Shown here one piece after another: positions 3,764 to 27,510 of a DNA stretch of 40,997 nucleotides. Positions within the stretch are counted from its first letter, which is position 1. The number at the start of each line of letters is the position of its first letter. The position numbers were made by a program, and so were the translations under genes. The stretch lies in UHGV virus genome UHGV-0123923; one strand, written 5' to 3'. The notes under the pieces were generated by a model, which saw only the letters and a list, made by a program, of their open reading frames with translations, was not told the origin of the DNA and made no database searches. Origin of the DNA: a virus.

Positions 3764-3793
3764 TTCTCAATTCCTTATATTGTTGGTGTAGGA

Positions 3794-7150: not shown

Positions 7151-7203
7151 CGTGATTTCTCGCTTTTCAGTTTACTCCGGGAACTGCCCGGCCAGTGATT
7201 AGA

Positions 7204-7232
7204 ACTATAATAGCTAACTATTCGGGTGTCAA
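7204..7232 (-). promoter_or_regulatory. sigma70-like promoter (TTGACA-N17-TATAGT) with operator motif
   Basis: -35 is the reverse complement of 7227..7232, -10 of 7204..7209; AATAG(7209..7213)-CTAA-CTATT(7218..7222). Confidence 0.45.
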
Positions 7233-9578: not shown

Positions 9579-9608
9579 TTGTTTCTCTCCTCTCGTTTGG
9601 TATGGGCT

Positions 9609-9637
9609 AACTATAATAGCGAACTATTCACTTGTCA
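9609..9637 (-). promoter_or_regulatory. sigma70-like promoter (TTGACA-N17-TATAGT) with operator motif
   Basis: -35 is the reverse complement of 9632..9637, -10 of 9609..9614; AATAG(9614..9618)-CGAA-CTATT(9623..9627). Confidence 0.5.
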
Positions 9638-9641
9638 ATGG

Positions 9642-9671
9642 GCTTTTCTAAAATAATTAATATGGTACTAT
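9642..9671 (+). promoter_or_regulatory. operator motif with weak promoter upstream of the Cro-like gene
   Basis: AATAT(9658..9662)-GGTA-CTATT(9667..9671); TACTAT -10 at 9665..9670; poor -35 (TTTTCT). Confidence 0.35.
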
Positions 9672-9702
9672 TCACATATCAACTGACTAAGGAGTAATTG
9701 GC

Positions 9703-10129: not shown

Positions 10130-12393
10130 TCCAAATCCTCCTCTGTCACTGTCAGCATCTCATTCGGTTCATATATTGTCTTCGGAATCTTGTTATCAGT
10201 TATCCGGGTGTTCAGCCTGTAACGGCCAGGGATTATCTGATTGTTTTCGTCAGTCCCCGGAACAAGATACCCAGCCTCAACCATTTTCTTAATCTTCCCG
10301 CGTTCTATGGCTTCTTTGGAGTTAAACGCCTTTGCATTGGGGTCAGACTGTGCGAGCTTATTAGCGGCGGCGACTGTGATGCCTTCGTTGCCGTTGTAGG
10401 TTCCTTCCGCCAGTTCAAACGCCGCCAGTATCGTGGCTTCTGAACTGTTGACGGCGTTCTCTATGGTTTTACGTACGTTTTCTTTACCTTCTTTCGTCAA
10501 CCCTTCTTCCCGCTCTTTCTCCTCGTCAGTCTTGAACGGCTCGAAACCCCACGGCATTAACACAAGTGCCTTATGCGGCTCCGGCAGGTCGAGGTTTACG
10601 ATTGTGCCGTATTCCTCCGTGCTACCGAGGAACTCAACCGCACGGTACTCTTTCGGCGGCGGCGCTTCACGGAACTGTACCGACTCCAGCACCATGCCAA
10701 CCGTCTTCTGTTGCGGCCCGTGCTTAAATTTCGAGTGGTATACATTTATCTGACGGTCGGTAGCTCGTTCGATTGTCAGTTCCACGTCGACGCCAGCATA
10801 CAGCGCCCCACTGCCGCGGGCTTTCTTTCCGCCCTTCGGCGTATGGTGGACAACGCCTACCGCAGCTTTAGTCGCGTCACGTACTTCTTTCAGGATGGCG
10901 ATAACCTTACCCATGCCGATTGCCGTTGATGAACTGTTCTCGTCGAACTTATCAATCGTCAGGGCTAGCGTCTGGTTGAGGGTGTCGAACGCAACCATGC
11001 CGATGGGTTCGTCACCCGCAGTTTCACGCATCAACTTAATCAGGCTTTTCAGTTTTCCGACTTCGCCCATGTCGATGACATGTACATAATCTTTACCTTC
11101 CTCGCCATATTTAGCCGCGAGCGCATCGATACGGGTGCGTGTAGCTGCGCCGCCCTCACCGTCGATATAGAAATGGTGGCAACGCTGGGTGTCAGCACCC
11201 GCAAACCGGTATCCGGCGGCGCTCAGGTACATCATCCCCAGCGTATAGAAGGATTTATACGTACCGGACTCCCCGACGATATCCCATATGCAATCCGACG
11301 GCATGTACCCTTCAACGACGAAATCAGCCTTTACCGGTTCCGGTAACTCGTCCTCCTCTGAGTCCTCGTCGTCTTCAAGGTCGTCCAGGCTGCAAGAAAC
11401 AGATTCACGTGCACCCCATCCGATGGCCTCTGCGACTTCACTGAACGGCAGCCCCGTCGCATCGCACGCATACTTCCACACCTCTTTCGGTGACATGCCT
11501 TCGGTCGCCGTAATGTCAGTGTCGTGAATCATGGTTACGTTCGGCGCCTCATATCCCTCTCGCGGGAAGCACAGCAGGAAGTCATCCGGGCGCGGCGTCG
11601 GGTCGCTGTAGTTTTCTGCGTGTTCTGGCGTAGCTGGCATCTTAAGGCCTCGTGGCGTCATGATACCGCCATACTCGAACGCCAGTGCCTCGAACGCGTC
11701 GGTAAACGCGGTGCGCAGTTCTTCCGGTATCTGGTAATCCGATGCGCTGCTAACGTCAACGGCGGGGATGCCTTCCAGTAACTCGTCCGGGTCAATCAGG
11801 TCGTTGCGGCGTGACCAGATAACGGTAGAGCCAACCGGAGGCAGGTACATCGGTTGCGAAAGAGTGAACCCGCTGCGGTCAGCACCCATGCTTTTGAAGA
11901 AGTGTTCCAGCAATCCATGGCGAACACGGATGATGTCACCACCTTCGACCGGACGGGCCAGCGGCATGACGACGCGAAAGCGCGGGGCCTCGTCGGTATG
12001 TGATGCCGTGGTATAGATACACATGCCCCGGCGGCTGCGTTTAACTAAGCGCACCGCTTCCTGATACTCTTCTGGTGTTGCGCTGTCGAAGTCCAGATAC
12101 GCCAGCGACGATTTGCTTACAGACGCGTCACAGCGATAGAAAAAGCCTTTACGCGCTTGCTTAAAGTCGCCGGTTTCCGGGTCTTTTACAGTGCTGTGCG
12201 TCGAGTCGCACGCGGCGGTGATATAACCGGGCGCGGTCTTCGGGTTAATTCCGTCACGGACAGCATCGAGTGGCTGGATTAACTCTTTCAGGTCGTCCAG
12301 TGTTGCCGTGTGTGTGGTTCTGACGTTTATATCCTTTTTCTCAGCCCGCGCGTTGCGACGCGACCACGAGTAGGATAAAATTACATCGGACAT
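10126..12393 (-). CDS. primase-polymerase (AEP-like) fused to a RecA-like ATPase (primase/helicase)
   Basis: 755 aa; GAAGGAAAT RBS; N-terminal LAYLDFD and SHTDE motifs; C-terminal Walker A GESGTYKS in a DnaB/RepA-like ATPase domain. Confidence 0.7.
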   Translation of the reverse strand: MSDVILSYSWSRRNARAEKKDINVRTTHTATLDDLKELIQPLDAVRDGINPKTAPGYITAACDSTHSTVKDPETGDFKQARKGFFYRCDASVSKSSLAYLDFDSATPEEYQEAVRLVKRSRRGMCIYTTASHTDEAPRFRVVMPLARPVEGGDIIRVRHGLLEHFFKSMGADRSGFTLSQPMYLPPVGSTVIWSRRNDLIDPDELLEGIPAVDVSSASDYQIPEELRTAFTDAFEALAFEYGGIMTPRGLKMPATPEHAENYSDPTPRPDDFLLCFPREGYEAPNVTMIHDTDITATEGMSPKEVWKYACDATGLPFSEVAEAIGWGARESVSCSLDDLEDDEDSEEDELPEPVKADFVVEGYMPSDCIWDIVGESGTYKSFYTLGMMYLSAAGYRFAGADTQRCHHFYIDGEGGAATRTRIDALAAKYGEEGKDYVHVIDMGEVGKLKSLIKLMRETAGDEPIGMVAFDTLNQTLALTIDKFDENSSSTAIGMGKVIAILKEVRDATKAAVGVVHHTPKGGKKARGSGALYAGVDVELTIERATDRQINVYHSKFKHGPQQKTVGMVLESVQFREAPPPKEYRAVEFLGSTEEYGTIVNLDLPEPHKALVLMPWGFEPFKTDEEKEREEGLTKEGKENVRKTIENAVNSSEATILAAFELAEGTYNGNEGITVAAANKLAQSDPNAKAFNSKEAIERGKIKKMVEAGYLVPGTDENNQIIPGRYRLNTRITDNKIPKTIYEPNEMLTVTEEDLE

Positions 12394-12727: not shown

Positions 12728-12896
12728 CTTTAACGTTCTCCTTAATCCACGCCTCCACAGTAGCGCGGTCAAAGGTACCTGGCTGACGGTAGCCGTTGAT
12801 AACGCGGCAACACTCCGGGAACTTTCCTGACCGAAGCCAGCGATTAAGAGTCATAGGGGAAACCCCGATTAAGTCTGCTACTTCTTTCTGTGTCAT
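12717..12896 (-). CDS. AlpA/excisionase-like small HTH DNA-binding protein
   Basis: start placed at ATG (MTQKEVADLIGVSPMTLNRWL) behind a GAGAGGG RBS; first gene of the primase operon. Confidence 0.55.
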   Translation of the reverse strand: MTQKEVADLIGVSPMTLNRWLRSGKFPECCRVINGYRQPGTFDRATVEAWIKENVKDAN

Positions 12897-12925
12897 TTTA
12901 CGCGCCCTCTCTATCAAGTGAAACA

Positions 12926-12954
12926 ACTATAACACCTACAATAGACAAACACAA
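12926..12954 (-). promoter_or_regulatory. candidate promoter of the primase operon (TTGTGT-N17-TATAGT)
   Basis: -10 is the reverse complement of 12926..12931; AATAG(12940..12944) and CTATT(12956..12960) arms flank the -35. Confidence 0.3.
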
Positions 12955-12958
12955 CCTA

Positions 12959-12986
12959 TTGACAAAATAAAATGTAGCTGTAAAAT
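12959..12986 (+). promoter_or_regulatory. candidate rightward promoter (TTGACA-N16-TAAAAT)
   Basis: TTGACA 12959..12964, TAAAAT 12981..12986 preceded by TG; AT-rich surroundings. Confidence 0.4.
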
Positions 12987-13053
12987 CAACGTATCGAATG
13001 GCTTTAGTTAAGAATTACTTAGAAACAATATTCTTAAGTCTCGGGTACTTAAA

Positions 13054-13073
13054 GCCCCGCCATAAAGCGGGGC
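13054..13073. other. conserved GC hairpin element, copy 1 (GCCCCGC-CATAAA-GCGGGGC)
   Basis: 7 bp perfect stem; same stem and flanks recur inverted at 24547..24566. Confidence 0.5.
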
Positions 13074-13317
13074 GCTAAATAGTACTCTTGGTAACGTTAG
13101 TATCTAAGTTTCCTCAAAGTAACAGCAAGTGGCAAGAAAGCCCCCGTCTATTTAAATTTTACCCTCCTTCATAAGCCACTGATAATTAAAAGTTTCTATA
13201 GTTGCCGTAAACGTGGAAGAGAGTACTTCACTTCGCTGGGGTGGGCTAACGCCCACCCACTGCGTTGCGTACTCTTTTAAGAAACGAAAGAATCACAACG
13301 GCAACGTAACTATTCTC

Positions 13318-13346
13318 TTGCACACCCCAACATAATAGGATACTAT
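13318..13346 (+). promoter_or_regulatory. promoter (TTGCAC-N17-TACTAT) with operator motif, for the rightward small-gene block
   Basis: TTGCAC 13318..13323, TACTAT 13341..13346; AATAG(13334..13338)-GATA-CTATT(13343..13347); ~36/39 nt identical to the reverse-strand promoter at 33012..33040. Confidence 0.55.
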
Positions 13347-13380
13347 TCACTTATCGAAACGAGACAGAGGAGTGAGGGTT

Positions 13381-13572
13381 ATGTTTAAACGTGGTCAGTT
13401 GGTTAAATACTCCGACGATAAACACGGCATAATTGAATTAAAATCTGCTTTATTTCCAGGAAAGTACGTAGTTACCGTGCAAAATGTGAGAGGAGTAAAT
13501 TCACAAATATACGTAGCGGAGGAGAACTTAAAACTCATCGGCAACAATTTTAAATTTAAAGGGGCGAAGTGA
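13381..13572 (+). CDS. hypothetical protein (63 aa)
   Basis: ATG behind GAGGAGTGAGGG RBS; the ORF track's upstream GTG start is unlikely. Confidence 0.5.
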   Translation: MFKRGQLVKYSDDKHGIIELKSALFPGKYVVTVQNVRGVNSQIYVAEENLKLIGNNFKFKGAK

Positions 13573-13772
13573 TGGAAGAATTATTTGAAGAACTGAAACA
13601 TCATGATTTCGAGGAAATATATTTCGTAGCTGAACGCTACGAGGTGCATTTATCGGACGGGATTACAATTATTACGATGGATAGCCAGCAAATGCTAAAT
13701 AGCTTACAGGCAATCAAAACGGCATCGAATCGTGATGCTTGTGCCGACGACTCTGAGGGAGGTTGCCGTTAA
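13569..13772 (+). CDS. hypothetical acidic protein (67 aa)
   Basis: ATGA start/stop overlap with the upstream gene. Confidence 0.5.
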   Translation: MMEELFEELKHHDFEEIYFVAERYEVHLSDGITIITMDSQQMLNSLQAIKTASNRDACADDSEGGCR

Positions 13773-13951
13773 TGCGAATCCGTATAACTGACCGCAGGCT
13801 TGTCCGTATAACTGACCGCAGGCTTATAGATTTCGGTATCTCGGTAGGTGATGTTTTTCCGGCGTTCAGCATCAACCATTATGGTTTTATGATTGAGTAC
13901 AAAGGGTCGTTATTGTTCGTGTATCGGGATGAATGTGAGGTTCTGGTATGA
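13772..13951 (+). CDS. hypothetical protein containing an 8-residue tandem peptide repeat
   Basis: ATG behind GAGGGAGG RBS; 24 bp tandem duplication encodes RITDRRLV-RITDRRLI. Confidence 0.45.
   Translation: MRIRITDRRLVRITDRRLIDFGISVGDVFPAFSINHYGFMIEYKGSLLFVYRDECEVLV
13780..13827. repeat. 24 bp tandem direct repeat, 2 copies, 23/24 identical
   Basis: CCGTATAACTGACCGCAGGCTTGT then CCGTATAACTGACCGCAGGCTTAT, read directly. Confidence 0.85.
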
Positions 13952-14103
13952 GAGAAGCATTTGAACGGTGGGCTGTGGTCGAGGGTCTGCCGGTTAACAA
14001 GGGTTCAAAGAAAGAGTACCTGAACGTTAAGACGCGTCTCGCGTGGCGGGCGTGGAAAGCTGGTGTGCAATCCTTGATTGAAAGAGGTGTGAGGTATGGG
14101 TGA
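13948..14103 (+). CDS. hypothetical small protein (51 aa), below the ORF-track cutoff
   Basis: ATGA overlap with the upstream stop; stop overlaps the next gene start. Confidence 0.3.
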   Translation: MREAFERWAVVEGLPVNKGSKKEYLNVKTRLAWRAWKAGVQSLIERGVRYG

Positions 14104-14296
14104 GTGGATTAAGTGTAGCGAGATGCTGCCGGGTAATGGGTATACGGATAAAGAGTTCCTGGTGTATGAAACGTTAAATAACGCAGTTCAGCACGATTAT
14201 TACATAGTTCCTGATGACGGGAGAAAGCCTTTCTGGAATCACTACGATAAGTACGTGACGCACTGGATGCCGTTACCCGAGCCGCCAGAAGTGTGA
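14096..14296 (+). CDS. DUF551-like protein
   Basis: MGEWIKCSEMLP N-terminus and THWMPLPEPPEV C-terminus; paralog of 8487..8744. Confidence 0.5.
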   Translation: MGEWIKCSEMLPGNGYTDKEFLVYETLNNAVQHDYYIVPDDGRKPFWNHYDKYVTHWMPLPEPPEV

Positions 14297-14430
14297 TGTT
14301 CAATAGTTTGGGATTTTACTGAGTGACTTACGCTGCTACACAGCAGCGTACAACTTTAACTTAGTGTCGTCAAAAGGCGACACTTTCATCAAACGCAACA
14401 ATCGAAGCGACTATTGCAGGAGATGCAACA

Positions 14431-14604
14431 ATGATTACTAAAGAACAGGCTGAACGACTAATCACGTTAATCGACACGATGGTTGATGCGAAAACCGATT
14501 TAGCAACGGCAACAGAGGAATCCGCTACCTGGTCGCTTGAAGAAAGAGAGGCAGAAGCGGAAAGGGAGTTACTGGCGTTCATCGACTCTATAACACACCA
14601 ATAA
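14431..14604 (+). CDS. hypothetical small acidic protein (57 aa)
   Basis: ATG behind GGAG; the antisense ORF 14370..14582 in the track is probably its shadow. Confidence 0.3.
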   Translation: MITKEQAERLITLIDTMVDAKTDLATATEESATWSLEEREAEAERELLAFIDSITHQ

Positions 14605-14611
14605 AATTTAC

Positions 14612-14640
14612 TTGCACACTGGGATAGAATAGGCTACTAT
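14612..14640 (+). promoter_or_regulatory. promoter (TTGCAC-N17-TACTAT) with operator motif
   Basis: TTGCAC 14612..14617, TACTAT 14635..14640; AATAG(14628..14632)-GCTA-CTATT(14637..14641). Confidence 0.55.
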
Positions 14641-14670
14641 TCATTTACACGAGCGAGAGGAGAGACAGAG

Positions 14671-14808
14671 ATGGGCTGGTATGGTAGCTGGACTTTAGGC
14701 GAACTGGTAGACGCTTACGAAATAATTAGTAGCACTTCGGTGTGTGACGGCGACACTAAATCGCTGCTAGTCGGGGTGGATGCGAAAAGGGGTGAAGCTG
14801 ATGAGTAA
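14671..14808 (+). CDS. hypothetical small protein (45 aa)
   Basis: strong GAGAGGAGAGA RBS; stop overlaps the next ATG. Confidence 0.3.
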   Translation: MGWYGSWTLGELVDAYEIISSTSVCDGDTKSLLVGVDAKRGEADE

Positions 14809-15346
14809 CAAAAACGAAATATTCGAGTACCTGATCGACCAGCTACGGCAGCAGGTAAATAACAGCCGGAGCGAAGACCCGGCGCATGAGGTGCAGTCAC
14901 TTAAGAATCAGTTACGTGATGCGTCGGCGAAGATTAAGGAGTTGCGGGAAGACAACATTAAGAAATCTGAGCACATATCGCACCTGACAGGGCAAGTTAA
15001 GGAGTTGCATCTGGCATTGGTCGAGGCTACTGGTGACGTGGAGGCATACAAACTTATCCGCAAAGGTGCGTACGGTTCGGAGCAATCTGGTTGCCGAAAA
15101 GAAGATACGCAGGAATGTGACCACAATTGGATTATCGCTCCCGGATTGTTTATTGCCGAAGGCCACAAGGACAACGTGCCCGGTAGCCGGTTTTGCTGCG
15201 AATGCGGCAAGCGTGAGTGGGACGGACTTGAGTATGGGGCAACAGCCTGTACACAGGAGTGCAAACACAGTTTCTATTATGTAATAACAGATGGCTCCGC
15301 GCCGTTCGGTACGAAAGTATGTAAAACGTGCGGGGAATACTTCTGA
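14801..15346 (+). CDS. coiled-coil protein with C-terminal Cys-rich (zinc-binding-like) domain
   Basis: start chosen at the ATG coupled to the upstream stop; C-terminal CDHNW...CCECGK...CTQECKH...CKTCGEYF. Confidence 0.45.
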   Translation: MSNKNEIFEYLIDQLRQQVNNSRSEDPAHEVQSLKNQLRDASAKIKELREDNIKKSEHISHLTGQVKELHLALVEATGDVEAYKLIRKGAYGSEQSGCRKEDTQECDHNWIIAPGLFIAEGHKDNVPGSRFCCECGKREWDGLEYGATACTQECKHSFYYVITDGSAPFGTKVCKTCGEYF

Positions 15347-15549
15347 TGACCAGCATCTTATTTATCTGGGTACTGTCGGCGGGCCAGATGCAACTAGCGG
15401 CATCGGAAACGTTTTATTCGACGGAGGCGTGCCAGTCCGCGGCACGCGCCGCAGAGAACGCACACTTCCTGTTTCAGGGCGACAAGCCCAACGATTCAGA
15501 GGTACGCGCTATCTGCTCACCTAAGCGACTTGGCAATCAGGAGAAGTGA
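15346..15549 (+). CDS. small protein with hydrophobic N-terminus (possible membrane or exported protein)
   Basis: ATG overlaps the upstream stop; MTSILFIWVLSAGQMQLAAS; start uncertain. Confidence 0.4.
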   Translation: MTSILFIWVLSAGQMQLAASETFYSTEACQSAARAAENAHFLFQGDKPNDSEVRAICSPKRLGNQEK

Positions 15550-15731
15550 TTATGGTACAGAGATATTTATTACAAGGCGGTTTTGTCGCCCCGTATGATG
15601 AAGGACACTGGGTATTATATAACGATTATGTAAAACTCGAAGCTGAGTTACAGAAATACAAAGACCAGTTCCCGGATTACGTAGAGTGCGCGAACTGCGG
15701 GTCAATTACACATGTGGAAGGGGTGGAGTGA
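15546..15731 (+). CDS. hypothetical protein, paralog A (MVQRY family)
   Basis: shares MVQRY..G.WVLY.DY..LE..L pattern with the next gene. Confidence 0.45.
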   Translation: MIMVQRYLLQGGFVAPYDEGHWVLYNDYVKLEAELQKYKDQFPDYVECANCGSITHVEGVE

Positions 15732-15910
15732 TGGTGCAGAGATACGAAAACTACCACGGCGATATGTTTCAGGGCGCGGAAGGGCGCTGGGTCCTATACG
15801 AAGACTACGCGGAGCTTGAACGTAAACTGCGTGAGCTTGCTAAGCAGGTAGTAAACAGTCCGTGCGACTGGAAGACGGATGAATTGGCGCGCGAGATTCT
15901 GGACCTATGA
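15731..15910 (+). CDS. hypothetical protein, paralog B (MVQRY family)
   Basis: start moved to internal ATG (MVQRYENYHGDMF) overlapping the upstream stop. Confidence 0.45.
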   Translation: MVQRYENYHGDMFQGAEGRWVLYEDYAELERKLRELAKQVVNSPCDWKTDELAREILDL

Positions 15911-16200
15911 GCCTGGCAACTGACATCCTGAAACGAAGCGGCCTTGCGCCGCTGTCACCGAGAGCTAAAACACAGATATACAAGCGCCGCCGTAACGCGC
16001 TGTACCCTGAGATTCAGGCCCGACGCAAAGCTATCCGCGCCTGTGGCTTCCAGAACGGGAAGGCCGTGAATCTCGGTGAGTTCAAAACACAGGAACGTGC
16101 AGCTATAGCTAATCGGTTATTTAATTACTGGAAATCGCTTGGATACGATGATATTCCGACGAAACCACAGAGACGACAATACATCTGGAGACATAAATAA
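15907..16200 (+). CDS. hypothetical basic protein (97 aa)
   Basis: ATGA overlap with upstream gene; Arg/Lys-rich. Confidence 0.5.
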   Translation: MSLATDILKRSGLAPLSPRAKTQIYKRRRNALYPEIQARRKAIRACGFQNGKAVNLGEFKTQERAAIANRLFNYWKSLGYDDIPTKPQRRQYIWRHK

Positions 16201-16275
16201 ACCGTTATTAAGATAATTCCTAACCGTGCTATCCTCCAGTTACTGCATACTTAATACGCACCTGGAGGATTCATC

Positions 16276-16584
16276 TTGGATAAATTTACTGAAACAGTGA
16301 CGGGGTGGCTTCTCGCTGCCGCACTAGCCGGAGGGGTTATCGGACTACGACAACATAAGTCCGTTATTTCCGGCCCTATCGACGGCTTCTGCTTCATTGC
16401 AACTGGCTTCACTTGCGCCGTATTTGGTGCGCCTCTCGCGGCTCAATGGTTCGGTATTACCGGTGAGCGCGAGATAGCTGGCCTCGGATTCATCATCGCC
16501 ATTCTCTGGATGCCTATCTATTCCCGTCTCTCTGGTATCGTCGCCGGAGAATACATCTCACGTCGAGGAGGCCCGGATGAATGA
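16276..16584 (+). CDS. holin-like membrane protein (about three predicted TM segments)
   Basis: TTG start behind GGAGGA; hydrophobic segments; two genes upstream of the endolysin. Confidence 0.45.
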   Translation: MDKFTETVTGWLLAAALAGGVIGLRQHKSVISGPIDGFCFIATGFTCAVFGAPLAAQWFGITGEREIAGLGFIIAILWMPIYSRLSGIVAGEYISRRGGPDE

Positions 16585-16849
16585 ATTATTCTGGTTCGGC
16601 GGTATGCTGGCAATTGGGGGCACATCGCTGTTTAATGTATATCATCCCAGCGTGGACGACGGGCTATTTGGCCGGGTGCTCTATATCCTGACTGCTATAG
16701 TCTGCGCCGCCGGATGTATCCACCTGTTACAGGGCAGCATGTCACCGACGCTGCCTGAGACATTAATCACATTAGTCGCGCTGCGTCAGATTCGTCAGGC
16801 GTGGTTGTCATACGGAGGATATAAGCGTGTCTCGAAATATTTCAGATAA
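16577..16849 (+). CDS. small membrane protein (two TM; holin/antiholin partner candidate)
   Basis: overlaps neighbours; hydrophobic segments LFWFGGMLAIGGTSLF and VLYILTAIVCAAGCIHLL. Confidence 0.4.
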   Translation: MNELFWFGGMLAIGGTSLFNVYHPSVDDGLFGRVLYILTAIVCAAGCIHLLQGSMSPTLPETLITLVALRQIRQAWLSYGGYKRVSKYFR

Positions 16850-17312
16850 TGGATTGCATTTTACCGCTGCATTTGAGGGATTCCGCGGAACTGCGTATCG
16901 TGCTACGCCGAACGAGAAGTACCTGACTATTGGCTACGGGCACTACGGACCGGACGTAACCCCGGGTAAGACCATCACCCCGGGGCAAGGCCTCCTGTTA
17001 CTGAATCGCGATATGTCTAAAGCCGTAGCTGCGGTTGATGCCGCGGCGCACCATTCGCTTACACAGGCACAGTTCGATGCGGTATGTGACCTGGTGTATA
17101 ACGCAGGTGCTGGCGTGATTGCGTCTACTACGGGCACAGGCAAGGCACTGCGTTCTGGTGATACTGCAACACTGCGGGCTAAGCTGGCGCTGTTCATCAA
17201 CCAGAACGGCAAAACACTACTTGGCCTGCGTCGCCGTACCGCCGGGCGTCTGGCGCTGTTCGAAGGTAAGCCGTGGCAAGAGGCTGAGGCTATTGGGAGG
17301 GCTGTTAAATGA
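16827..17312 (+). CDS. endolysin, glycoside hydrolase family 24 lysozyme
   Basis: GTG start behind GGAGGA; motif TAAFEGFRGTAYRATPNEKYLTIGYGHYG typical of T4/lambda-R type lysozymes. Confidence 0.8.
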   Translation: MSRNISDNGLHFTAAFEGFRGTAYRATPNEKYLTIGYGHYGPDVTPGKTITPGQGLLLLNRDMSKAVAAVDAAAHHSLTQAQFDAVCDLVYNAGAGVIASTTGTGKALRSGDTATLRAKLALFINQNGKTLLGLRRRTAGRLALFEGKPWQEAEAIGRAVK

Positions 17313-17525
17313 TGGGCGAATACGAAGGCGTTTAGTATTCTGGTTAGGCCAAGTTTTTCGTATTTGCCAATGGAGGCCGTTATGGCACTGCAAGAGTTCA
17401 CCAACCCAGTTAAATCTCGTGACGATATTGACGAGCAGGTCGGTTACGGCGAAGGTTGACACCTAAGACTAATCCGACGATACTTAAATCACCTCCTGTT
17501 CCATCCCTCTGCTCTCCAGTTTTAT

Positions 17526-17556
17526 CCCGGCCCTGACCCAGCCGGGATTTTTTTTA
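17526..17556 (+). terminator. intrinsic terminator after the lysis genes
   Basis: CCCGGC-CCTGACCCA-GCCGGG followed by ATTTTTTTTATC. Confidence 0.65.
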
Positions 17557-17577
17557 TCTATCTTCCGCAATGACTAG

Positions 17578-17606
17578 TTGACTATTACTCTCACACCAAT
17601 TATATT
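17578..17606 (+). promoter_or_regulatory. promoter (TTGACT-N17-TATATT)
   Basis: TTGACT 17578..17583, TATATT 17601..17606; ACTATT half-site overlaps the -35. Confidence 0.5.
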
Positions 17607-17639
17607 TACTCCATCGACAACGAGAACGGAGTAGAGAAA

Positions 17640-17780
17640 ATGAAAATCACAGACATCGAAGCATTCAAAGACGCACAACTGATGGCACGCATCGCCGTTA
17701 GTAACCTGAGCAACAGCATTCCAGCGGACGCGTTCTGGTTCGCTGCGATGCAGACACTTAAAGCAGCTTACGCAGGAGAG
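17640..17780 (+). CDS. hypothetical small protein (46 aa)
   Basis: GGAG RBS; ATGA coupling to the next gene. Confidence 0.3.
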
Positions 17781-17944
17781 AAGAAATGAGCGAGTCAGAA
17801 GGAAATATCACGACACCATCCGCCGGGAAGAAAGTCAACCGCACCCCGTTCCCGACACGAGAGGAACTGATGAAACGTAACAGTTTCCCTGGGCCGGACA
17901 AGAACAAGTATCTTAATCGCATGTGGGGAGAGCGTAAAGAATGA
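17777..17944 (+). CDS. hypothetical small protein (55 aa)
   Basis: ATGA overlaps at both ends. Confidence 0.3.
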   Translation, partial: REEMSESEGNITTPSAGKKVNRTPFPTREELMKRNSFPGPDKNKYLNRMWGERKE

Positions 17945-18186
17945 CTGACCGCGAATATGAAAAGATGATGGTAGAGGCTGTTAACGGCGGCGTAGACATC
18001 GGACACGTGATGCACGTCCTGAATACTAAAATCGCGGTAGCTGAGCAAATGGTTGAGTCGCTTTATGAGACGCGCCGTGAACTGATTAACCGCTTCAACC
18101 TGAACAAGTGCGAACATGAGTTCGACTACAATCCGAAGGATATGTGTGGGCAGTGTATTAAATGCGGGGTACAGCGTCATGCCTAA
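17941..18186 (+). CDS. small protein with C-terminal zinc-ribbon-like motif
   Basis: CEHEF...CGQCIKCG. Confidence 0.45.
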   Translation: MTDREYEKMMVEAVNGGVDIGHVMHVLNTKIAVAEQMVESLYETRRELINRFNLNKCEHEFDYNPKDMCGQCIKCGVQRHA

Positions 18187-18427
18187 AATCACAATCGCAT
18201 CGCTCGAGCGCCGTATTCTGGTGCTTGAGTCGGAGAAACAGACGTTAGGCGGGCAACTGTCGATTAACGGTGAGTACCAGTTAGCCGCATTTAAGGTTCT
18301 TCTCATGTTGTTGAGAGGAGAAGAGGAAAAGATGAACGCCTGCGAGCATGATTACCGCCTGCATTTAGTTGATGGGGAGCATCGAGTCACATGCTTAAAA
18401 TGCGGTAAAGCGTATGAAAGCGCCTGA
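18179..18427 (+). CDS. small protein with C-terminal zinc-ribbon-like motif
   Basis: start moved to ATG (MPKITIAS) overlapping the upstream stop; CEHDY...CLKCGK. Confidence 0.45.
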   Translation: MPKITIASLERRILVLESEKQTLGGQLSINGEYQLAAFKVLLMLLRGEEEKMNACEHDYRLHLVDGEHRVTCLKCGKAYESA

Positions 18428-18596
18428 ACCCGTAGTTATCGATGGCGTCCTGTGGAAACCATACTCGGTTAACCACATCGACGCCGACGGGAAGAAGTTT
18501 AGTTTCTACATTTTTGCAATTAGCCGTGAGCACGCCGCCTGTGTGGTCGATGATATACGAGAAACGGCGTGGCTTGGCGATGAGATAGTGGGGTAA
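18414..18596 (+). CDS. hypothetical protein (60 aa)
   Basis: overlapping start; no motif. Confidence 0.45.
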   Translation: MKAPEPVVIDGVLWKPYSVNHIDADGKKFSFYIFAISREHAACVVDDIRETAWLGDEIVG

Positions 18597-18598
18597 GT

Positions 18599-18769
18599 AT
18601 GTTCAGTGACATTAACGCGGCAATCGAAGAAGCAATCTGGCGTCGCTACAACGGCGAGCAACAACGGCACTTCTGCCTGGTGCAGCGCGGTAACGTGATT
18701 GCCGTGGTACAGGACCGCGATAGTAAATATCCGAATGCGATGTGGACAACGAGGAATTTCTTAGGATGA
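18599..18769 (+). CDS. hypothetical small protein (56 aa)
   Basis: ATG 3 nt after the previous stop; stop overlaps the next ATG. Confidence 0.3.
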   Translation: MFSDINAAIEEAIWRRYNGEQQRHFCLVQRGNVIAVVQDRDSKYPNAMWTTRNFLG

Positions 18770-19002
18770 TTACCAGCATTCCGAACCTGATTAAAGAATT
18801 CGGCACGATGGCGGAGACATGCCGACAAACCGGCATCAACGAGATGACGATTGCCAAGTACAGCAAAGACGTTAACTGCGAGCGCCATGTAATTTATAAC
18901 AACCGTCTGATGACGCACGTTAAGACAAGCCCGGTGTTATTCACGCGCCGGGGTATCACTAAAACGGAGCAACGTATTGCTAAAGAGGAGAGTGGGGGAT
19001 GA
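18766..19002 (+). CDS. hypothetical protein, possible HTH
   Basis: start moved to the internal ATG; segment ETCRQTGINEMTIAKYSK resembles an HTH. Confidence 0.4.
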   Translation: MITSIPNLIKEFGTMAETCRQTGINEMTIAKYSKDVNCERHVIYNNRLMTHVKTSPVLFTRRGITKTEQRIAKEESGG

Positions 19003-19157
19003 TTAGTATTCTGGAGTTCATCGACAACCAAGTTTGGTACGAGCCAGAGTTAAATAAGTATTCAGTTAATGGGAAAATATTTCGGCGCAAAGGCCAGGCA
19101 GAGCGTTACGCAGCTAAACTATACCGTCAGCTTGTCAAGGATGGTTTCTTCAAATGA
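18999..19157 (+). CDS. hypothetical small protein (52 aa)
   Basis: ATGA overlap; below the ORF-track cutoff. Confidence 0.3.
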   Translation: MISILEFIDNQVWYEPELNKYSVNGKIFRRKGQAERYAAKLYRQLVKDGFFK

Positions 19158-19259
19158 GACTACTAATCATCCCTAACGCCCGGGCCATTCCCGTAGCTAA
19201 CGACCATTACGGCGGCGACGGTAAAAGAGCACCACGCCACGGCCTATACAACTGATACA

Positions 19260-19284
19260 AGCCCTCTACCGAGGGCTTTTCTGT
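19260..19284 (+). terminator. intrinsic terminator before the packaging genes
   Basis: GCCCTC-TACC-GAGGGC followed by TTTTCTGT. Confidence 0.6.
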
Positions 19285-19376
19285 ACATCCTGCCCAATCA
19301 CCCTATATAATCCCTTTAGACGCGTAGGGCGCGTCTGGTGCGCTCTGATGGTCAGACGCATATGCAAGGGGATTAT

Positions 19377-19922
19377 ATGAAGCTGAAACTCAAGCAGCCA
19401 TCGCCAGAGGTGGTGCAAGCTGCACATGAAGAAGCTGTTAGTGCAAACCGCCGACGTAAACGACCGCGTGGGAAACAGAGCCTTTATCAATCGTCCCGTA
19501 ATTCCGCCGCGTTGTGGGACCCGGACTATTGCGACGCGTTAATCGAGTTCTTCGACCGTACGTCGTGGGAACTTGTGCCTACGTCCAAGGGTGACGAACG
19601 TCCGCTGATTCAGGATAAACCGCCGTCACTGGCCCGCTTCGCCTCACACATCGGCGTAACTATCCCGATTATTAAGCTGTGGCTGCGTGAGATTCCCGCA
19701 TTTGCAGAAGCCTATGAAACAGCACAGGCGCTGGAAGAGGCATATTTCACTGAGACAGGGGCCGCGGGCATCTCTGCTACGTTCGCCGCAGCTAAACTGG
19801 GCCTCGGTAAAGAGAAACCAGTCGAATCCACCGAAGAAACGGCACCGACTGAGATTATTTTTAGTGTTGCAGAGCCTGTAGGTAAAATTGTAACAACGAA
19901 TATGGGTGAGGTAGAGGAATGA
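19377..19922 (+). CDS. terminase small subunit candidate
   Basis: ATG behind AAGGGGA; immediately upstream of and overlapping (ATGA) the large terminase; basic N-terminus. Confidence 0.5.
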   Translation: MKLKLKQPSPEVVQAAHEEAVSANRRRKRPRGKQSLYQSSRNSAALWDPDYCDALIEFFDRTSWELVPTSKGDERPLIQDKPPSLARFASHIGVTIPIIKLWLREIPAFAEAYETAQALEEAYFTETGAAGISATFAAAKLGLGKEKPVESTEETAPTEIIFSVAEPVGKIVTTNMGEVEE

Positions 19923-21169
19923 GTATTCAGCTATCCGCACCGCAGGCACTGTTCCTGAATTGCGGTAACAAATACAAAGCCTATGTCGGCGGCTTCGGCA
20001 GCGGAAAGACATTTGTTGGCTGCCTTGACCTGCTTACGTTTATGCTCAAGCATCCAGGTACGCGCCTGGGTTACTTCGGCCCGACATACCCGGCTATCCG
20101 TGACATCTTCTACCCAACATTTGAGGAAGCCGCTAACCTGCTCGGCCTCGATGTGCTGGTTAAATCTGGCGACAAAGAAGTCGTGGTTACTCGCGGTAAG
20201 ACGGTGCTCGGTACAGTTATCTGCCGTTCTATGGATAACCCAGGCTCGATAGTCGGCTTCAAAATCGCTGCTGCGGTCGTGGATGAGCTTGATGTATTGA
20301 GCCGTGAGAAAGCTGAGCTGGCGTGGAACAAAATAGTCGCCCGTATGCGTCTGGTTATCCCCGGCGTAACTAACCACATCTCTGTCACCACGACACCGGA
20401 AGGGTTCAAGTTCGTCTACGCCAAGTTCAAAGAGAACCCGACGCCGAGTTACTCGATGGTGCAGGCTTCTACACACGAGAACGCGCGATTCCTGCCGCCT
20501 GACTACATTAGCTCACTGACCGAGACTTACCCCGCGCAACTGATTAACGCGTACCTGAACGGTGAGTTCGTTAACCTGACATCCGGCAGCGTGTATTATG
20601 CGTATGACCGTCGCAAGCACCGCAGCAAAGAGACAATTCAACCGGGCGATACACTGTACATCGGGCAGGACTTCAACGTTACGAAGAACGCCAGCGCCGT
20701 GTATGTGCAACGTAAAGACGGCTGGCACGCGGTGGCAGAACTGAAAGGTCTGTTTGATACGCCGGACACCGTGCGTGTAATTACTGAGAAGTGGAAGTCG
20801 CAGGGCCACCGCATAGTCGTTTACCCGGACGCCAGCGGCAAGAACCGCAAGACCAACTCGGCGTCAATCTCAGATATTGCGTTACTCCAGCAGGCCGGTT
20901 TCGATGTTCGCGCTAAATCCGCCAACCCTCCGGTTAAAGACCGTGTTTTAGCCGTGAATACCGCACTGGAAAAAGGTAAGCTGTGGGTTAATGACCACTT
21001 ATGCCCCGAGATAGCGAAGACGCTGGAGCAGCAGGCATACGATGATAACGGAGAGCCAGCTAAAGACGGCATCATTGACCATATGGCGGATGCTCTCGGC
21101 TATCCTGTAGTTTACGAGATGCCGGTGGTTAAACCAGTAATCAACATCCCGGTGACTTTCGCACTTTAA
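19919..21169 (+). CDS. terminase large subunit
   Basis: 416 aa; Walker A GGFGSGKT, Walker B VVDELD; GAGGTAGAGG RBS. Confidence 0.85.
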   Translation: MSIQLSAPQALFLNCGNKYKAYVGGFGSGKTFVGCLDLLTFMLKHPGTRLGYFGPTYPAIRDIFYPTFEEAANLLGLDVLVKSGDKEVVVTRGKTVLGTVICRSMDNPGSIVGFKIAAAVVDELDVLSREKAELAWNKIVARMRLVIPGVTNHISVTTTPEGFKFVYAKFKENPTPSYSMVQASTHENARFLPPDYISSLTETYPAQLINAYLNGEFVNLTSGSVYYAYDRRKHRSKETIQPGDTLYIGQDFNVTKNASAVYVQRKDGWHAVAELKGLFDTPDTVRVITEKWKSQGHRIVVYPDASGKNRKTNSASISDIALLQQAGFDVRAKSANPPVKDRVLAVNTALEKGKLWVNDHLCPEIAKTLEQQAYDDNGEPAKDGIIDHMADALGYPVVYEMPVVKPVINIPVTFAL

Positions 21170-21180
21170 GAGGACAACAA

Positions 21181-22674
21181 ATGGTTTCCGCAAACATTAA
21201 CGCAGGGCAAGGGCAGAACGTTAAAACCCGCCACCGCCAGTACGAAGAGTATTTCCCTAAGTGGCAGAAGGTGCGACATGCGCTTTCTGGCGACCTGACA
21301 TCGTATCTACGTGACGTCAGTAAGAACGAGCCGGACCCGGTTTACGGTCGCCAGCGTCAGGCTGAATACGAAGCGGGGGCAATTTGCTACAACTTCACCA
21401 AGCGAACGCTTTCAGGCATGGTCGGCAGCGTAATGCGCAAAGACCCCGAGATGATTATTCCGTCTCAGATGGAATACCTGACCACTAACTGTGACGGGTC
21501 GGGCGTTGGCCTGTGGCAGCACGCACAGGATACTCTGTATGAGATTGATGCTGTTGGTCGCGGTGGGTTGCTGGTTGACGCCCCCGCGGTAGAAGTAGCT
21601 ACCATGGCAGAGCAAAACGAGGGTTTACTAAACCCAACAATCGCTTTCTACACCGCAGAGAATATCATCAACTGGCGTCTCCAGCGCGTCGGGTCTGTTA
21701 ATCGTGTGGTTATGGTTGTATTGCGTGAGGAATACGAGTACACCGATGGCGCGGATGAGTTCAGCCCCAACTACGGCGAGCAATACCGAGTCCTTGATAT
21801 TTTCGAAGGCCAGTATCGCCAGCGTCTGTACCGCTTTAACCAGAAAGGTGCACTGACGGAAGGTGGCTATATCGAAATATTCCCGAAACTCGGTAATATT
21901 CCGGTCGGGGTGATTCCGTTCACGTTCATCGGCGCGGGAAATAACGACTCAACCCCTGACGATGCACCTTTGCTGCCGTTGGCTGAACTTAATATCGGGC
22001 ACTTCCGCAACAGCGCGGACAATGAGGAGTCCAGCTTCGTCGTAGGCCAGCCTACTCTGTTCATCGCCCCCGGTGAGAACATGAGCATGGGACAATGGAA
22101 AGAAGCCAACCCTCACGGAGTGCGTATGGGGTCACGTTCTGGCCATAACATCGGTTACGGCGGCAATGCGTTTCTGGTCCAGGCCAGTGAGAACAACCTA
22201 GCCAAGCAGAACATGTTGGATAAAGAGAACCAGGCAATCCAGATTGGTGCACAGCTTATTACCCCGACGCAGCAAATCACCGCGGAATCGGCACGCCTGC
22301 AACGCGGCGCTGATACGTCCGTTATGGCAACAATCGCACGTAACGTAAGCATGGCGTATACCGATGCGTTGCGCTGGGTCGCGGGTATGCTTGGGATTAG
22401 CGACAGCACTGAAATTGAGTTCAAACTGAACATGGAGTTCTTCCTGCAACCAATGACCGCTCAGGACCGCGCGCAGTGGATGGCGGATATTAACGCGGGC
22501 CTGTTACCGGCTACCGCTTACTATGCTGCGTTGCGTAAGGCGGGGGTAACTGACTGGACAGACGAGGACATTCAGAACGCTATCGAGGATGCGCCTCTGC
22601 CATTAGGTGCTGTTGCTCAGGTGGCTGGGGAGATTCCGCAGTCGGCGCAGCAAAAAGACCCCACCCAGCAGTAA
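21181..22674 (+). CDS. portal protein
   Basis: 497 aa directly after the terminase; AAGAGGA RBS; size and position. Confidence 0.75.
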   Translation: MVSANINAGQGQNVKTRHRQYEEYFPKWQKVRHALSGDLTSYLRDVSKNEPDPVYGRQRQAEYEAGAICYNFTKRTLSGMVGSVMRKDPEMIIPSQMEYLTTNCDGSGVGLWQHAQDTLYEIDAVGRGGLLVDAPAVEVATMAEQNEGLLNPTIAFYTAENIINWRLQRVGSVNRVVMVVLREEYEYTDGADEFSPNYGEQYRVLDIFEGQYRQRLYRFNQKGALTEGGYIEIFPKLGNIPVGVIPFTFIGAGNNDSTPDDAPLLPLAELNIGHFRNSADNEESSFVVGQPTLFIAPGENMSMGQWKEANPHGVRMGSRSGHNIGYGGNAFLVQASENNLAKQNMLDKENQAIQIGAQLITPTQQITAESARLQRGADTSVMATIARNVSMAYTDALRWVAGMLGISDSTEIEFKLNMEFFLQPMTAQDRAQWMADINAGLLPATAYYAALRKAGVTDWTDEDIQNAIEDAPLPLGAVAQVAGEIPQSAQQKDPTQQ

Positions 22675-22684
22675 GTTCACATAT

Positions 22685-22705
22685 AGCCCCGAAAGGGGCT
22701 TTCTT
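22685..22705 (+). terminator. hairpin/weak terminator after the portal gene
   Basis: AGCCCC-GAAA-GGGGCT followed by TTCTT. Confidence 0.45.
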
Positions 22706-22710
22706 ATAGT

Positions 22711-24248: not shown

Positions 24249-24253
24249 ACTGA

Positions 24254-24275
24254 AGCCCCGAAAGGGGCTTTTTAG
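24254..24275 (+). terminator. intrinsic terminator
   Basis: AGCCCC-GAAA-GGGGCT followed by TTTTTAG. Confidence 0.7.
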
Positions 24276-24323
24276 TGCCTGTGATTATTCCAGTTATTCC
24301 ACTCAATTGTAAATGTTGGAATA

Positions 24324-24366
24324 AACTATTCGAATAGTTGACTTTTCACCAAAAATGTGCTAAGCT
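24324..24366 (+). promoter_or_regulatory. promoter (TTGACT-N17-TAAGCT) preceded by a perfect 16 bp palindrome AACTATTCGAATAGTT
   Basis: palindrome 24324..24339 overlaps the -35 (24338..24343); -10 at 24361..24366 preceded by TG. Confidence 0.45.
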
Positions 24367-24546
24367 CCACCTGAGCTTGTGAAGTATGAACAAGCGACCG
24401 CGGCGCGGGCAGGTAACGGAGCGGGACGTAAGTCCTGAGTGTAGTTACGCTGACGCGTTCGGAAGGGCCATACTCTATTGCTTGTGTAAAAAGTAACTTG
24501 TTTACTGAGATTACGCCGTTTCTATGTTTAAATGATAAGGACTAGC

Positions 24547-24566
24547 GCCCCGCTTTAAGGCGGGGC
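24547..24566. other. conserved GC hairpin element, copy 2 (GCCCCGC-TTTAAG-GCGGGGC), terminator-like on the + strand
   Basis: same stem and flanks as 13054..13073 in inverted orientation; followed by TTTACTT; 24 nt upstream of the Rz start. Confidence 0.5.
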
Positions 24567-24590
24567 TTTACTTATCGAGAAAGGGGAAAC

Positions 24591-24977
24591 ATGAATCTTA
24601 AAGCAACTGTCGTAGCGGGAGCATGTTTCATCATCCTGGCTTACGCACACGGCATCTACCAGTATCGCAGCGGCTGGAACGGAGGCCGGGCGAATCTCGT
24701 TTCGCAGCAACAGCAGAAAGCACAGGCTGAGTTAGCTAAGAAAACACAACGGCAGCAGCAGGATGAATCGAAGGCCGCCGCCGCTGATAACGAAGGCAAG
24801 ACGAAATCAGAGGTAATCACCCGTGAAGTCGTTAAGTACATTAAAACGCCTGGCCGCAGCGTGTGCACTTTTGACCCTGAGCGCGTGCAGCTCAAGTCCC
24901 GCGCCGTCGCAAACGCCAATTCCATCCCCGGATACGACGATGATGCAGCCGCCGTGCAAACTGGCACTGCCAAGTAA
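24591..24977 (+). CDS. i-spanin (Rz-like)
   Basis: AAAGGGGAAAC RBS; N-terminal TM segment followed by a Gln/Lys/Ala-rich helical region; overlapped by a lipoprotein gene in another frame. Confidence 0.6.
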   Translation: MNLKATVVAGACFIILAYAHGIYQYRSGWNGGRANLVSQQQQKAQAELAKKTQRQQQDESKAAAADNEGKTKSEVITREVVKYIKTPGRSVCTFDPERVQLKSRAVANANSIPGYDDDAAAVQTGTAK

Positions 24978-25792: not shown

Positions 25793-25798
25793 CAGAAT

Positions 25799-27508: not shown

Positions 27509-27510
27509 AA

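Follow-up and report, generated by a model that had tools for sequence, protein, structure and literature searches.

A duplicated, bulged stem-loop in two non-coding regions of a Kagunavirus genome is a candidate leaky terminator

Two GC-rich hairpins of a Kagunavirus genome lie in non-coding regions and face opposite strands. We compared their sequences, folds and surroundings across the window, by which we mean the whole analysed stretch of 40,997 nucleotides. The hairpins are the two arms of a 28-nt inverted repeat, and each of them sits within a larger, bulged stem-loop. We tentatively favour, with somewhat less than even confidence, the reading that both are copies of one orientation-specific RNA stem-loop that acts as a leaky terminator or attenuator. 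The module would be active on one strand, plus for copy B (upstream of the spanin gene Rz) and minus for copy A (in the early control region), and it would consist of a GC stem of 7-8 bp, a 3-bp AU/GU extension, a 3-nt 5′ bulge, an outer helix of 5-6 bp and a short, interrupted U-tract. The promoters, the transcripts and termination itself at both hairpins are inferred throughout.

Kagunavirus and Jerseyvirus (Guernseyvirinae) are among the most often isolated E. coli and Salmonella therapy phages, and we know of no account of the transcriptional organisation of the subfamily.

A 28-nt inverted repeat in a Kagunavirus genome

Megablast identified the window as a Kagunavirus: both hairpin loci match coliphages of the K1G, K1H and K1ind type and are also found in other Kagunavirus and Jerseyvirus genomes. 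The genome map was transferred from annotated relatives. At the end of the leftward replication arm are a helicase-primase gene and a small HTH regulator gene (start near 12896-12926), and the early control region (12927-13371) comprises ~445 non-coding nt. The rightward arm runs through small early genes, holins and endolysin, terminase, portal and head morphogenesis genes to a Hoc-like gene (stop at 24248); after a second non-coding region (24249-24590) come Rz/Rz1 (ATG at 24591) and then the genes for the scaffold, the major capsid protein and the tail. The Rz gene (24591..24977, plus strand), annotated as an i-spanin or Rz-like spanin in relatives, lies directly 3′ of hairpin B.

The arms of the repeat, 13050-13077 and 24543-24570, are identical at 27 of 28 positions (96% complementary), which makes the repeat the third-longest inverted one found by a repeat search of the window. 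The oriented unit that they share, TAGC-GCCCCGC-TTTAWG-GCGGGGC-TTTA, is read on the plus strand at 24543-24570 (copy B, TAGC followed by the hairpin and TTTA) and on the minus strand at 13077..13050 (copy A). Both hairpins lie where a sequence-only reading of the window had placed them, with GCCCCGC-CATAAA-GCGGGGC at 13054-13073 and GCCCCGC-TTTAAG-GCGGGGC at 24547-24566 on the plus strand, the second loop being CTTAAA on the minus strand. That reading had also assigned the U-tracts to the correct strands (TTTACTTATC on the plus strand at copy B, TTTAAGTACC on the minus strand at copy A), but its counts of about 30 conserved nt and four of six shared loop bases have to be revised to 28 nt and five of six. 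The contrast that it drew with the canonical terminators of the genome was borne out: those at 1994-2011, 22685-22700, 24253-24275 and 30558-30577 carry GAAA or AAAC loops and T-runs, and they form a family, AAGGCCCC-GAAA-GGGGCCTTTT, that is distinct from the repeated hairpin.

The bare stem pattern with up to two mismatches is expected 0.19 times by chance, and at least two matches arose in 2 of 100 shuffles; the 27/28 match, which includes the loop and the flanks, lies by our estimate far beyond chance (~1e-6 expected per 41 kb). Past the 28 nt, homology of the two copies is ruled out by local alignment of both flanks, which was no better than for shuffles (p = 0.7-0.8). REP/MITE-like palindromes occur in many dispersed copies, whereas there are exactly two copies here in the window. 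Neither a 42-mer of the hairpin nor a 196-nt segment of locus A had a match among 5,426 complete E. coli genomes, which rules out a host origin or a REP-like element. In IMG/VR, the 28-mer was confined to the Rz locus.

Conservation and fold of the two hairpins

Hairpin B (core 24547..24566, plus strand) has a 7-bp GC stem, GCCCCGC/GCGGGGC, and the loop TTTAAG (dG -15.8 kcal/mol for 20 nt), and it folds as 8 bp with a tetraloop. A 66-nt query around it matched ~180 Guernseyvirinae records, from both E. coli and Salmonella phages, at ≥95% identity, and positional, structure-preserving homologues were present in ~270 Jersey-type records. The sequence-only reading had described a conserved element, which holds for copy B on the strength of these records but not for copy A, which is restricted to one small sublineage of the K1G type. 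In a set of 21 distinct sequences, hairpin B has the stem GCCCCGC/GCGGGGC, GCCCAGC/GCTGGGC (Sciku) or, in Salmonella phages of the Jersey type, GCCCGAC/GTCGGGC or GCCCGGC/GCCGGGC, through changes from CG to GC in seven sequences, from CG to AU in one and from GC to AU in three. In this set, 99.3% of the cells are paired, double changes occur at two pairs, and the covariation score of the stem was reached by none of 500 shuffles, with slid controls nowhere near it.

Because four different stems are tolerated provided that they pair, the pattern points to pairing of the nucleic acid rather than to a protein reading a DNA palindrome. The latter had been among the candidates of the sequence-only reading, and it is now disfavoured, whereas an attenuator or the end of a small RNA, which had stood beside it, is best supported. 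More generally, the palindrome might act as DNA, be it as the binding site of a dimeric protein, as a cruciform or as a recombination site, and a perfect 7+7 palindrome that is present twice would suit such a role in phage regulatory regions, which are rich in operators, for example AATAG/CTATT motifs. We regard this as very improbable: the acceptance of GCCCCGC, GCCCAGC, GCCCGAC and GCCCGGC so long as they pair is a base-pairing signature, the G:U pairs and the one-sided bulge described below indicate a strand-specific structure, the hairpin is absent from the 5,426 E. coli genomes, and mosaic junctions do not coincide with it.

Hairpin A (core 13054..13073, minus strand) reads GCCCCGC-TTTATG-GCGGGGC followed by its U-tract and has a dG of -16.5 kcal/mol. 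Its repeat unit (13050..13077, minus strand) differs from copy B of the window at one position, and it is 28/28 identical to the Rz-locus hairpin of many other Kagunaviruses, in which the loop is TTTATG. Together with its flanks, copy A was found among sequenced phages only in K1G, K1H, K1ind2, K1ind3, EC3-1 and LM02P1, and a flank-anchored metagenome scan added four contigs. Variation around it is confined to the loop and the flanks; with 0 of 14 stem sites variable in nine sequences, against a background of 16%, selection on the stem is not significant (P ~0.09). Judged from sequence distribution, copy B is old and conserved, and copy A is young and rare.

Local folding extended both hairpins. 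Extended stem-loop B (24534..24576, plus strand; dG -20.8, z -4.35) is closed by the outer helix GAUAAG/CUUAUC, followed inwards by the 3-nt 5′ bulge GAC, UAG:UUA, a CxU mismatch and the GC stem; its tail is UUUACUUAUC, and it ends 14 nt 5′ of the Rz ATG. Extended stem-loop A (13043..13087, minus strand; dG -22.0, z -4.4) has the outer helix GUACU/AGUAC and the 5′ bulge AUU, again followed by UAG:UUA, a CxU mismatch and the GC stem. The dot-bracket pattern is identical for B on the plus strand, A on the minus strand and the Jersey-type B: an outer helix of 5-6 bp, a 3-nt 5′ bulge, an AU/GU helix of 3-4 bp, a C mismatch or bulge, a GC stem of 7-8 bp and a tetraloop. The outer helices and bulges are unrelated in sequence, the Jersey-type helix being UAUACG/CGUAUA, and random flanks would give at least five Watson-Crick pairs with a chance of 0.001 in the register of copy B and of 0.02 in any nearby register. 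When the opposite strands are folded, mismatches replace the G:U pairs and the bulge lies on the 3′ side instead.

The same strands were singled out by a d'Aubenton-Carafa-type terminator score, which was +14.0 for B on the plus strand and +9.7 for A on the minus strand, as compared with -36 and -38 for the respective opposite strands and with +17 and +31.7 for canonical terminators of the window. Hairpin B is the top-ranked terminator-like site on the plus strand from 13300 to 31000; hairpin A falls short of the threshold of the terminator scan despite its positive score. Both have a stem of at least 5 bp and a loop of 3-8 nt, the stem criterion for an intrinsic terminator. The U-tracts are short and interrupted, with 5/8 T at copy B and 4/8 T at copy A, and the Jersey-type homologue, with the tail UUAGCGUAU / TTAGCGTAT, scores -14.5 although its hairpin architecture is conserved. 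Taken together, the covariation of the stem, the bulged fold common to three contexts, the one-strand score and the position of hairpin B at the 3′ end of a conserved unit argue for a stem-loop that works at the RNA level.

The non-coding unit upstream of Rz

Hairpin B closes a conserved non-coding unit of ~250 nt that comprises a putative promoter, a structured RNA, a linker and the hairpin. The surrounding block, 24288-24590, is conserved in every relative and contains a cluster of TTATTCC/GGAATAA and ACTATTC/GAATAGT motifs; insertions vary at a slot just before the block (~24276-24287). A canonical terminator with a GAAA loop and a T-run (24253..24275, plus strand) follows the Hoc-like head gene and sets the unit apart from the head genes that precede it; the annotation of phage Sciku lists it as a terminator.

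The putative promoter (24338..24366, plus strand) combines the hexamers TTGACT and TAAGCT across a 17-nt spacer that includes a TGn extended -10. Its hexamers are invariant in 27 sequences, its spacer is variable, and its Jersey-type counterpart reads TAGACT / TACGCT; a stretch of ~200 nt runs from it to hairpin B. A second -10-like hexamer follows the first (TAAGCT..TGAGCT, or TACGCT-acc-TACGCT in the Jersey type), so that TGAGCT in Kagunavirus or TACGCT in the Jersey type is located 3-5 nt past the -10 and overlaps the P1 stem, the start site being a predicted one.

Directly downstream is a structured 5′ RNA domain (24367..24480, plus strand; 134.6 bits with our covariance model R1), which consists of the P1 hairpin and a long, irregular P2-P3 stem-loop and occurs as a single copy in the window by covariance-model search. 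The P1 and P2-P3 fold was recovered in every sequence type of the domain, P3 being represented by at least six different sequences and one P2 pair by C:G, U:A and A:U. In an alignment of 21 distinct sequences that was fitted to the model, 89% of the cells are paired, double changes are seen at nine pairs, and covariation scores 0.270, as compared with 0.105 for shuffles and at most 0.084 for slid controls. A known RNA family is ruled out for both the hairpin and the domain, as Rfam gave no hits at the gathering threshold in the whole window and only chance-level matches (E ≥ 0.9) around the two copies. Hidden copies of the domain at locus A of the window or at the loci of the BUCT825/Bas73 type were likewise rejected by covariance-model search, and ARAGORN found no tRNA. 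In phage wast, a 'tRNA-Ser' is annotated on the opposite strand, over the end of the Hoc-like gene.

Relatives annotate a 36-aa ORF over the RNA domain. In several genomes 1-nt indels break this ORF, many relatives have it either frameshifted or not at all, and a search of the Jersey type for a counterpart yielded none, so that, on sequence comparison, it is probably not a gene; the possibility that hairpin B is the terminator of a real small gene is thereby ruled out. We also rejected a long-range pairing of the 5′ end of the leader with the tail after hairpin B, which had been suggested by RNAalifold and the MFE fold, because the columns at the 5′ end are those of the P1 hairpin and lack structural homology from one genus to the other; as a partner, the local outer helix has the better support.

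A conserved, AU-rich linker (24481..24533, plus strand), defined by alignment, connects the RNA domain to hairpin B. It holds a weak, sub-threshold promoter-like pair, TTTACT-16-TATGTT (24501-24528), which is our own reading of the sequence and whose start site would coincide with the first base of extended stem-loop B; a 'host promoter' is annotated in this region in fBC-Eco01.

According to the leaky-terminator reading, some of the polymerases that start at the putative promoter would stop at the U-rich tail of copy B and release an RNA of ~200 nt, and the remaining ones would read through hairpin B into Rz/Rz1, the scaffold gene and the major capsid gene, yielding transcripts with the full extended hairpin in their 5′ UTR. 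This reading is favoured by a positive discriminant in one orientation only and by the location of the hairpin downstream of a conserved putative promoter and of a structured RNA, the ORF annotated over which has lost its frame in several genomes. It is also favoured by the layout in other Kagunaviruses, in which early-locus paralogues of the promoter and RNA are followed by a GC hairpin and then by a fresh promoter, suggesting a self-contained unit. As in the intrinsic terminators of E. coli and its phages, there is a GC-rich stem of 7-8 bp with a loop of 4-6 nt, a proximal UUU and a dependence on orientation, and the hairpin is intergenic and downstream of a putative promoter. ARNold called hairpin B a terminator in the published record of the relative fBC-Eco01, which is an in-silico prediction only; our literature search for transcript-end mapping in Guernseyvirinae found none. 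The sole RNA-seq study of a Kagunavirus is gene-level (PMC12645636).

Several features differ from intrinsic terminators and weaken the reading. The U-tracts are interrupted, including UUUAAGUACC, and almost gone in the Jersey type, which keeps the architecture, so that the function across the subfamily may not be termination. The conserved outer helix and 3-nt bulge are needless for an intrinsic terminator. Copy B stands before an operon rather than after one, and as it lies between its promoter and late genes that are essential, the phage would be harmed by efficient termination if there were no bypass.

Nearly as likely, and possible without being probable, is that the stem-loop serves RNA processing, RNA stability or recognition by a protein, with negligible termination. 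It might be an RNase III-type cleavage site, a hairpin that protects the Rz-capsid mRNA from within its 5′ UTR, or a site at which an RNA-binding protein of the phage attaches. Such a role would account for a three-part bulged fold that is kept in Kagunavirus B, in Jersey-type B despite a poor U-tract, and in copy A on the minus strand despite unrelated outer sequences, and for an outer helix that covaries between GAUAAG/CUUAUC and UAUACG/CGUAUA. The hairpin ends 4-5 nt 5′ of the Rz Shine-Dalgarno sequence in both Kagunavirus and the Jersey type, and the promoter-like pair of the linker would start RNAs at the first base of the extended hairpin. In these respects, namely an interrupted and bulged helix of ~17 bp in a 5′ UTR near a ribosome-binding site, with the fold conserved and the sequence not, it resembles T7 RNase III sites and the ompA 5′ stem-loop. 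However, such a helix is short for RNase III and shorter than its usual substrates, the putative internal promoter is weak and a poor match in the Jersey type, the Kagunavirus form has a proximal UUU and scores as a terminator, and copy A adjoins no ribosome-binding site and lies outside the 5′ UTR of any annotated gene.

The organisation of the unit also recalls the PR'-6S RNA-tR' region of lambda, in which a promoter, a non-coding transcript of ~200 nt and a hairpin just upstream of lysis and morphogenesis genes are combined with a -10-like hexamer near the transcription start; here, in both genera, the putative promoter at 24338-24366 is followed by a leader to 24576 and by the Rz ATG at 24591. 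By this analogy, hairpin B might be the cognate terminator of a processive antitermination cassette, in which either the upstream structured RNA, as a put-like element, or a Q-like protein that acts at the promoter would enable polymerase to pass hairpin B and the terminators beyond it. The promoter, the ~200-nt non-coding leader and the hairpin directly 5′ of lysis and structural genes would fit this logic, as would the second -10-like hexamer in both Kagunavirus and the Jersey type, a candidate for a sigma70-dependent pause element, and further terminators are present within the downstream operon (26787-26806 and 30558-30577). The RNA domain of two stem-loops, which is supported by covariation and has two paralogous copies behind two promoters in ~50 Kagunavirus records, is moreover reminiscent of putL/putR of HK022, two-stem-loop RNAs that are located just past two promoters of one phage and upstream of terminators.

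We nevertheless consider an antitermination cassette quite unlikely. A comparison of 20 small ORFs with PHROGs gave only families of unknown function and one HTH regulator, and the full Bas73 annotation contains no antiterminator gene, so that neither source provided a Q-like protein or a member of another antiterminator family, and a Q-like antiterminator was discarded as a candidate, although one from a family that such comparisons do not recognise might be present. A further promoter lies behind the paralogous unit of the early locus, which points less to a leader than to a self-contained RNA, and one RNA copy suffices in phages of the K1G and Bas73 types. Unlike in lambda, the terminator here is weak rather than strong and the leader is a conserved, covarying structured RNA. 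To our knowledge, lambda 6S RNA is not such an RNA. The likeness to HK022 is one of layout; the element here is larger (~114 nt), and the two copies of the ~50 records contrast with one only in the window, in Bas73 and at the Jersey-type loci.

A broader proposal, which we put forward by analogy and hold to be unlikely, is that the hairpin is the 3′ element of an undescribed RNA regulatory cassette of Guernseyvirinae, with put/Q-like control of read-through or a released small RNA. Its parts would be the extended -10 promoter, the covarying RNA of ~114 nt (one or two copies per genome) and the bulged stem-loop of fixed architecture, and read-through into the spanin and capsid genes might be controlled by the RNA itself or by a factor dedicated to recognition of the bulged hairpin.

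Copy A in the early control region

Back-to-back promoter-like sites occupy 12938..12986 of the early control region: a putative rightward promoter, TTGACA-16-TAAAAT (12959-12986, 11/12 matches), and a putative leftward one, TTGTCA-16-TATTGT (12965..12938), upstream of the HTH regulator gene, whose product matches PHROG 66 and other regulator families. On the rightward side, the early non-coding region has another GC hairpin, GGGGTGGGC-TAAC-GCCCACCC, at 13226..13285 (plus strand), with the outer helix GAGAGTAC/GTACTCTT and then TTTAAG; it covaries, reading GGGCAGGC/GCCTGCCC in BUCT825 and Bas73, and a conserved promoter follows 3′ of it at 13317-13353. Locus A has at least three unrelated alleles, namely the K1G type of the window, an RNA-paralogue type and the BUCT825/Bas73 type, and each of them shares a strong TTGACA promoter, 250-300 non-coding nt, a GC hairpin and the conserved promoter at 13317-13353. 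In ~50 Kagunavirus records, a second, diverged promoter and RNA domain is found at this locus, facing the early genes.

Under the leaky-terminator reading, copy A would be an inverted duplicate that was gained by the K1G-type allele of this mosaic region, and antisense transcription, which runs leftward here, would be halted by it ~90 nt short of the divergent early promoters (12938-12986). A possible source of such transcription is a weak leftward promoter-like site, TTATCA-18-TAAAAT (13156..13185, minus strand; 9/12 matches), from which a transcript would reach hairpin A ~100 nt later; the fold of 13150..13040 on the minus strand has a z of -3.8. Two observations at this locus favour the leaky terminator: the same bulged fold as in copy B is built from unrelated outer sequence, at the chance of 0.001 given above, and in a metagenome variant, L141, altered flanks lengthen the U and A tracts. 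Against it count that copy A is not downstream of any annotated minus-strand gene but upstream instead, that the candidate promoter that would feed it is weak, whereas hairpin B lies ~200 nt past a putative promoter of its own strand, and that the invariance of its stem is indistinguishable from neutrality.

The rarity of copy A, the mosaic alleles of its locus and the exchange between the two loci suggest that it is best explained, from the sequence comparisons, as a short module that was transferred between, or homogenised across, two recombining regulatory regions. It might have no function of its own and be a by-product of ectopic recombination or gene conversion, leaving copy B as the only functional one. 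Its restriction to one allele of a highly mosaic locus would agree with this, as would another transferred segment (promoter and RNA domain) that the same two loci share in other phages, the non-significant stem invariance in nine sequences and flanks without homology to those of copy B. We think this improbable, however, as an outer helix in the 3-nt-bulge register of copy B was kept or built around copy A (p = 0.001), as variation spares the stem and hits only the loop and the flanks, and as L141 improves the A and U tracts. The T4-type PeSL cassettes offer a parallel in that a stem-loop is repeated at regulatory regions of a mosaic phage and its carrier loci exchange sequence; in contrast to them, there are only two copies here, copy B is followed by a ribosome-binding site rather than by a promoter, and the insertion hot spot (24276-24287) lies upstream of the unit, with the mosaic junctions not at the hairpin.

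By itself, the duplication of a terminator-like hairpin is nothing out of the ordinary. If hairpin B is a leaky terminator that closes a structured RNA, it would mark a control point for the expression of the spanin, the scaffold and the major capsid protein, and a 'hypothetical protein' annotated in hundreds of genomes would turn out to belong to a non-coding RNA. In that case, the identical copy of the early control region would be evidence that these mosaic genomes pass short regulatory RNA modules from one locus to another. The adjoining covarying RNA domain, which is unannotated and widespread in a therapeutically important subfamily, is a more interesting lead than the hairpin.

A structured RNA domain and the reading frame that overlaps it

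Immediately downstream of a conserved promoter, the plus strand encodes a structured RNA domain (24367-24480) that consists of the P1 hairpin and the long P2-P3 stem-loop and is supported by covariation; Rfam returned no match for it. The domain occurs once in the window, and about 50 other Kagunavirus records have, in addition, a paralogue of it at the early control locus, for example at 11808-11923 (minus strand) of L073 (contig IMGVR_UViG_3300045988_018086), at 788-903 of L121 and at 788-902 of L120.

Relatives carry the annotation of a 36-aa hypothetical protein (KE1_005, CPT_Sciku_007, Bas73_0007) whose reading frame, at 24386-24496 (+) in the window, overlaps the RNA domain. Because this frame is shifted in several genomes and has no equivalent in the Jersey type, the Salmonella-phage relatives, it is probably not a gene.

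Mosaicism of the early control region

The early control region (12927-13371) is a hot spot of mosaicism, and close relatives carry at least three alleles of it that are unrelated to one another. Their layout is the same throughout: divergent promoters come first, then a non-coding stretch of 250-300 nt, then a GC hairpin, and last the conserved promoter (13317-13353). A second hairpin on the plus strand (13226-13285) is formed by GGGGTGGGC-TAAC-GCCCACCC with the outer helix GAGAGTAC/GTACTCTT, followed by TTTAAG, and covaries with GGGCAGGC/GCCTGCCC in BUCT825 and Bas73. It probably marks where the rightward early non-coding transcript ends.

Between 20 and 50 nt downstream of the strong rightward promoter there is an inverted repeat, TTAAGAAT-N14-ATTCTTAA (13008-13041), which is a candidate operator or RNA hairpin; most K1G-type relatives have an imperfect left arm (TTCAGAAT). 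A small early ORF contains an exact 23-nt tandem duplication (13779-13825; two copies of TCCGTATAACTGACCGCAGGCTT with a 24-nt period).

Hairpin variants and other terminator-like sites

The hairpin of the early control region (copy A) has a variant with changed flanks, TAAAA-GCCCCGC-CCCAAA-GCGGGGC-TTTAAAAT, in the metagenome contig Ga0233370_1000312 (L141:1446-1513), where A and U tracts flank both sides, as in bidirectional terminators. For the hairpin upstream of Rz (copy B), TAAA takes the place of GAC-TAGC in the 143-256 region of L073, and the hairpin is thereby perfect over 18 bp (dG -31 kcal/mol).

Directly after the major capsid gene, the usual location of a partial terminator in the late operon, stands a canonical GC hairpin, AAAGGGGC-TTCG-GCCCCTTT, with an A-tract and a T-tract (26787-26806). 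In Salmonella phage wast (NC_073174.1; L039:570-647), a 'tRNA-Ser' annotated on the opposite strand covers the Hoc-like gene's 3′ end together with its terminator. Because ARAGORN detected no tRNA in the homologous region of the window, this annotation is probably false.

Promoter-associated motifs

The -10 element is followed within 3-5 nt by another -10-like hexamer, as TAAGCT-ccacc-TGAGCT in the window (24361-24377) and as TACGCT-acc-TACGCT in the Jersey type (L035, about 2196-2215). This arrangement is reminiscent of the sigma70-dependent pause elements found at lambdoid late promoters, but the second hexamer overlaps the P1 stem.

An AATAG/CTATT motif (TTATTCC, ACTATTCGAATAGT) recurs beside or within promoter-like sites on both strands, at 3791-3825, 7198-7232, 9604-9638, 9658-9678, 13317-13353, 24289-24337, 25096-25114 and 33005-33041. 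It is identical to the consensus published as a PHIRE 'phage promoter' in fBC-Eco01. Because these phages encode no RNA polymerase, it is more likely the operator of a phage transcription regulator than a phage promoter.
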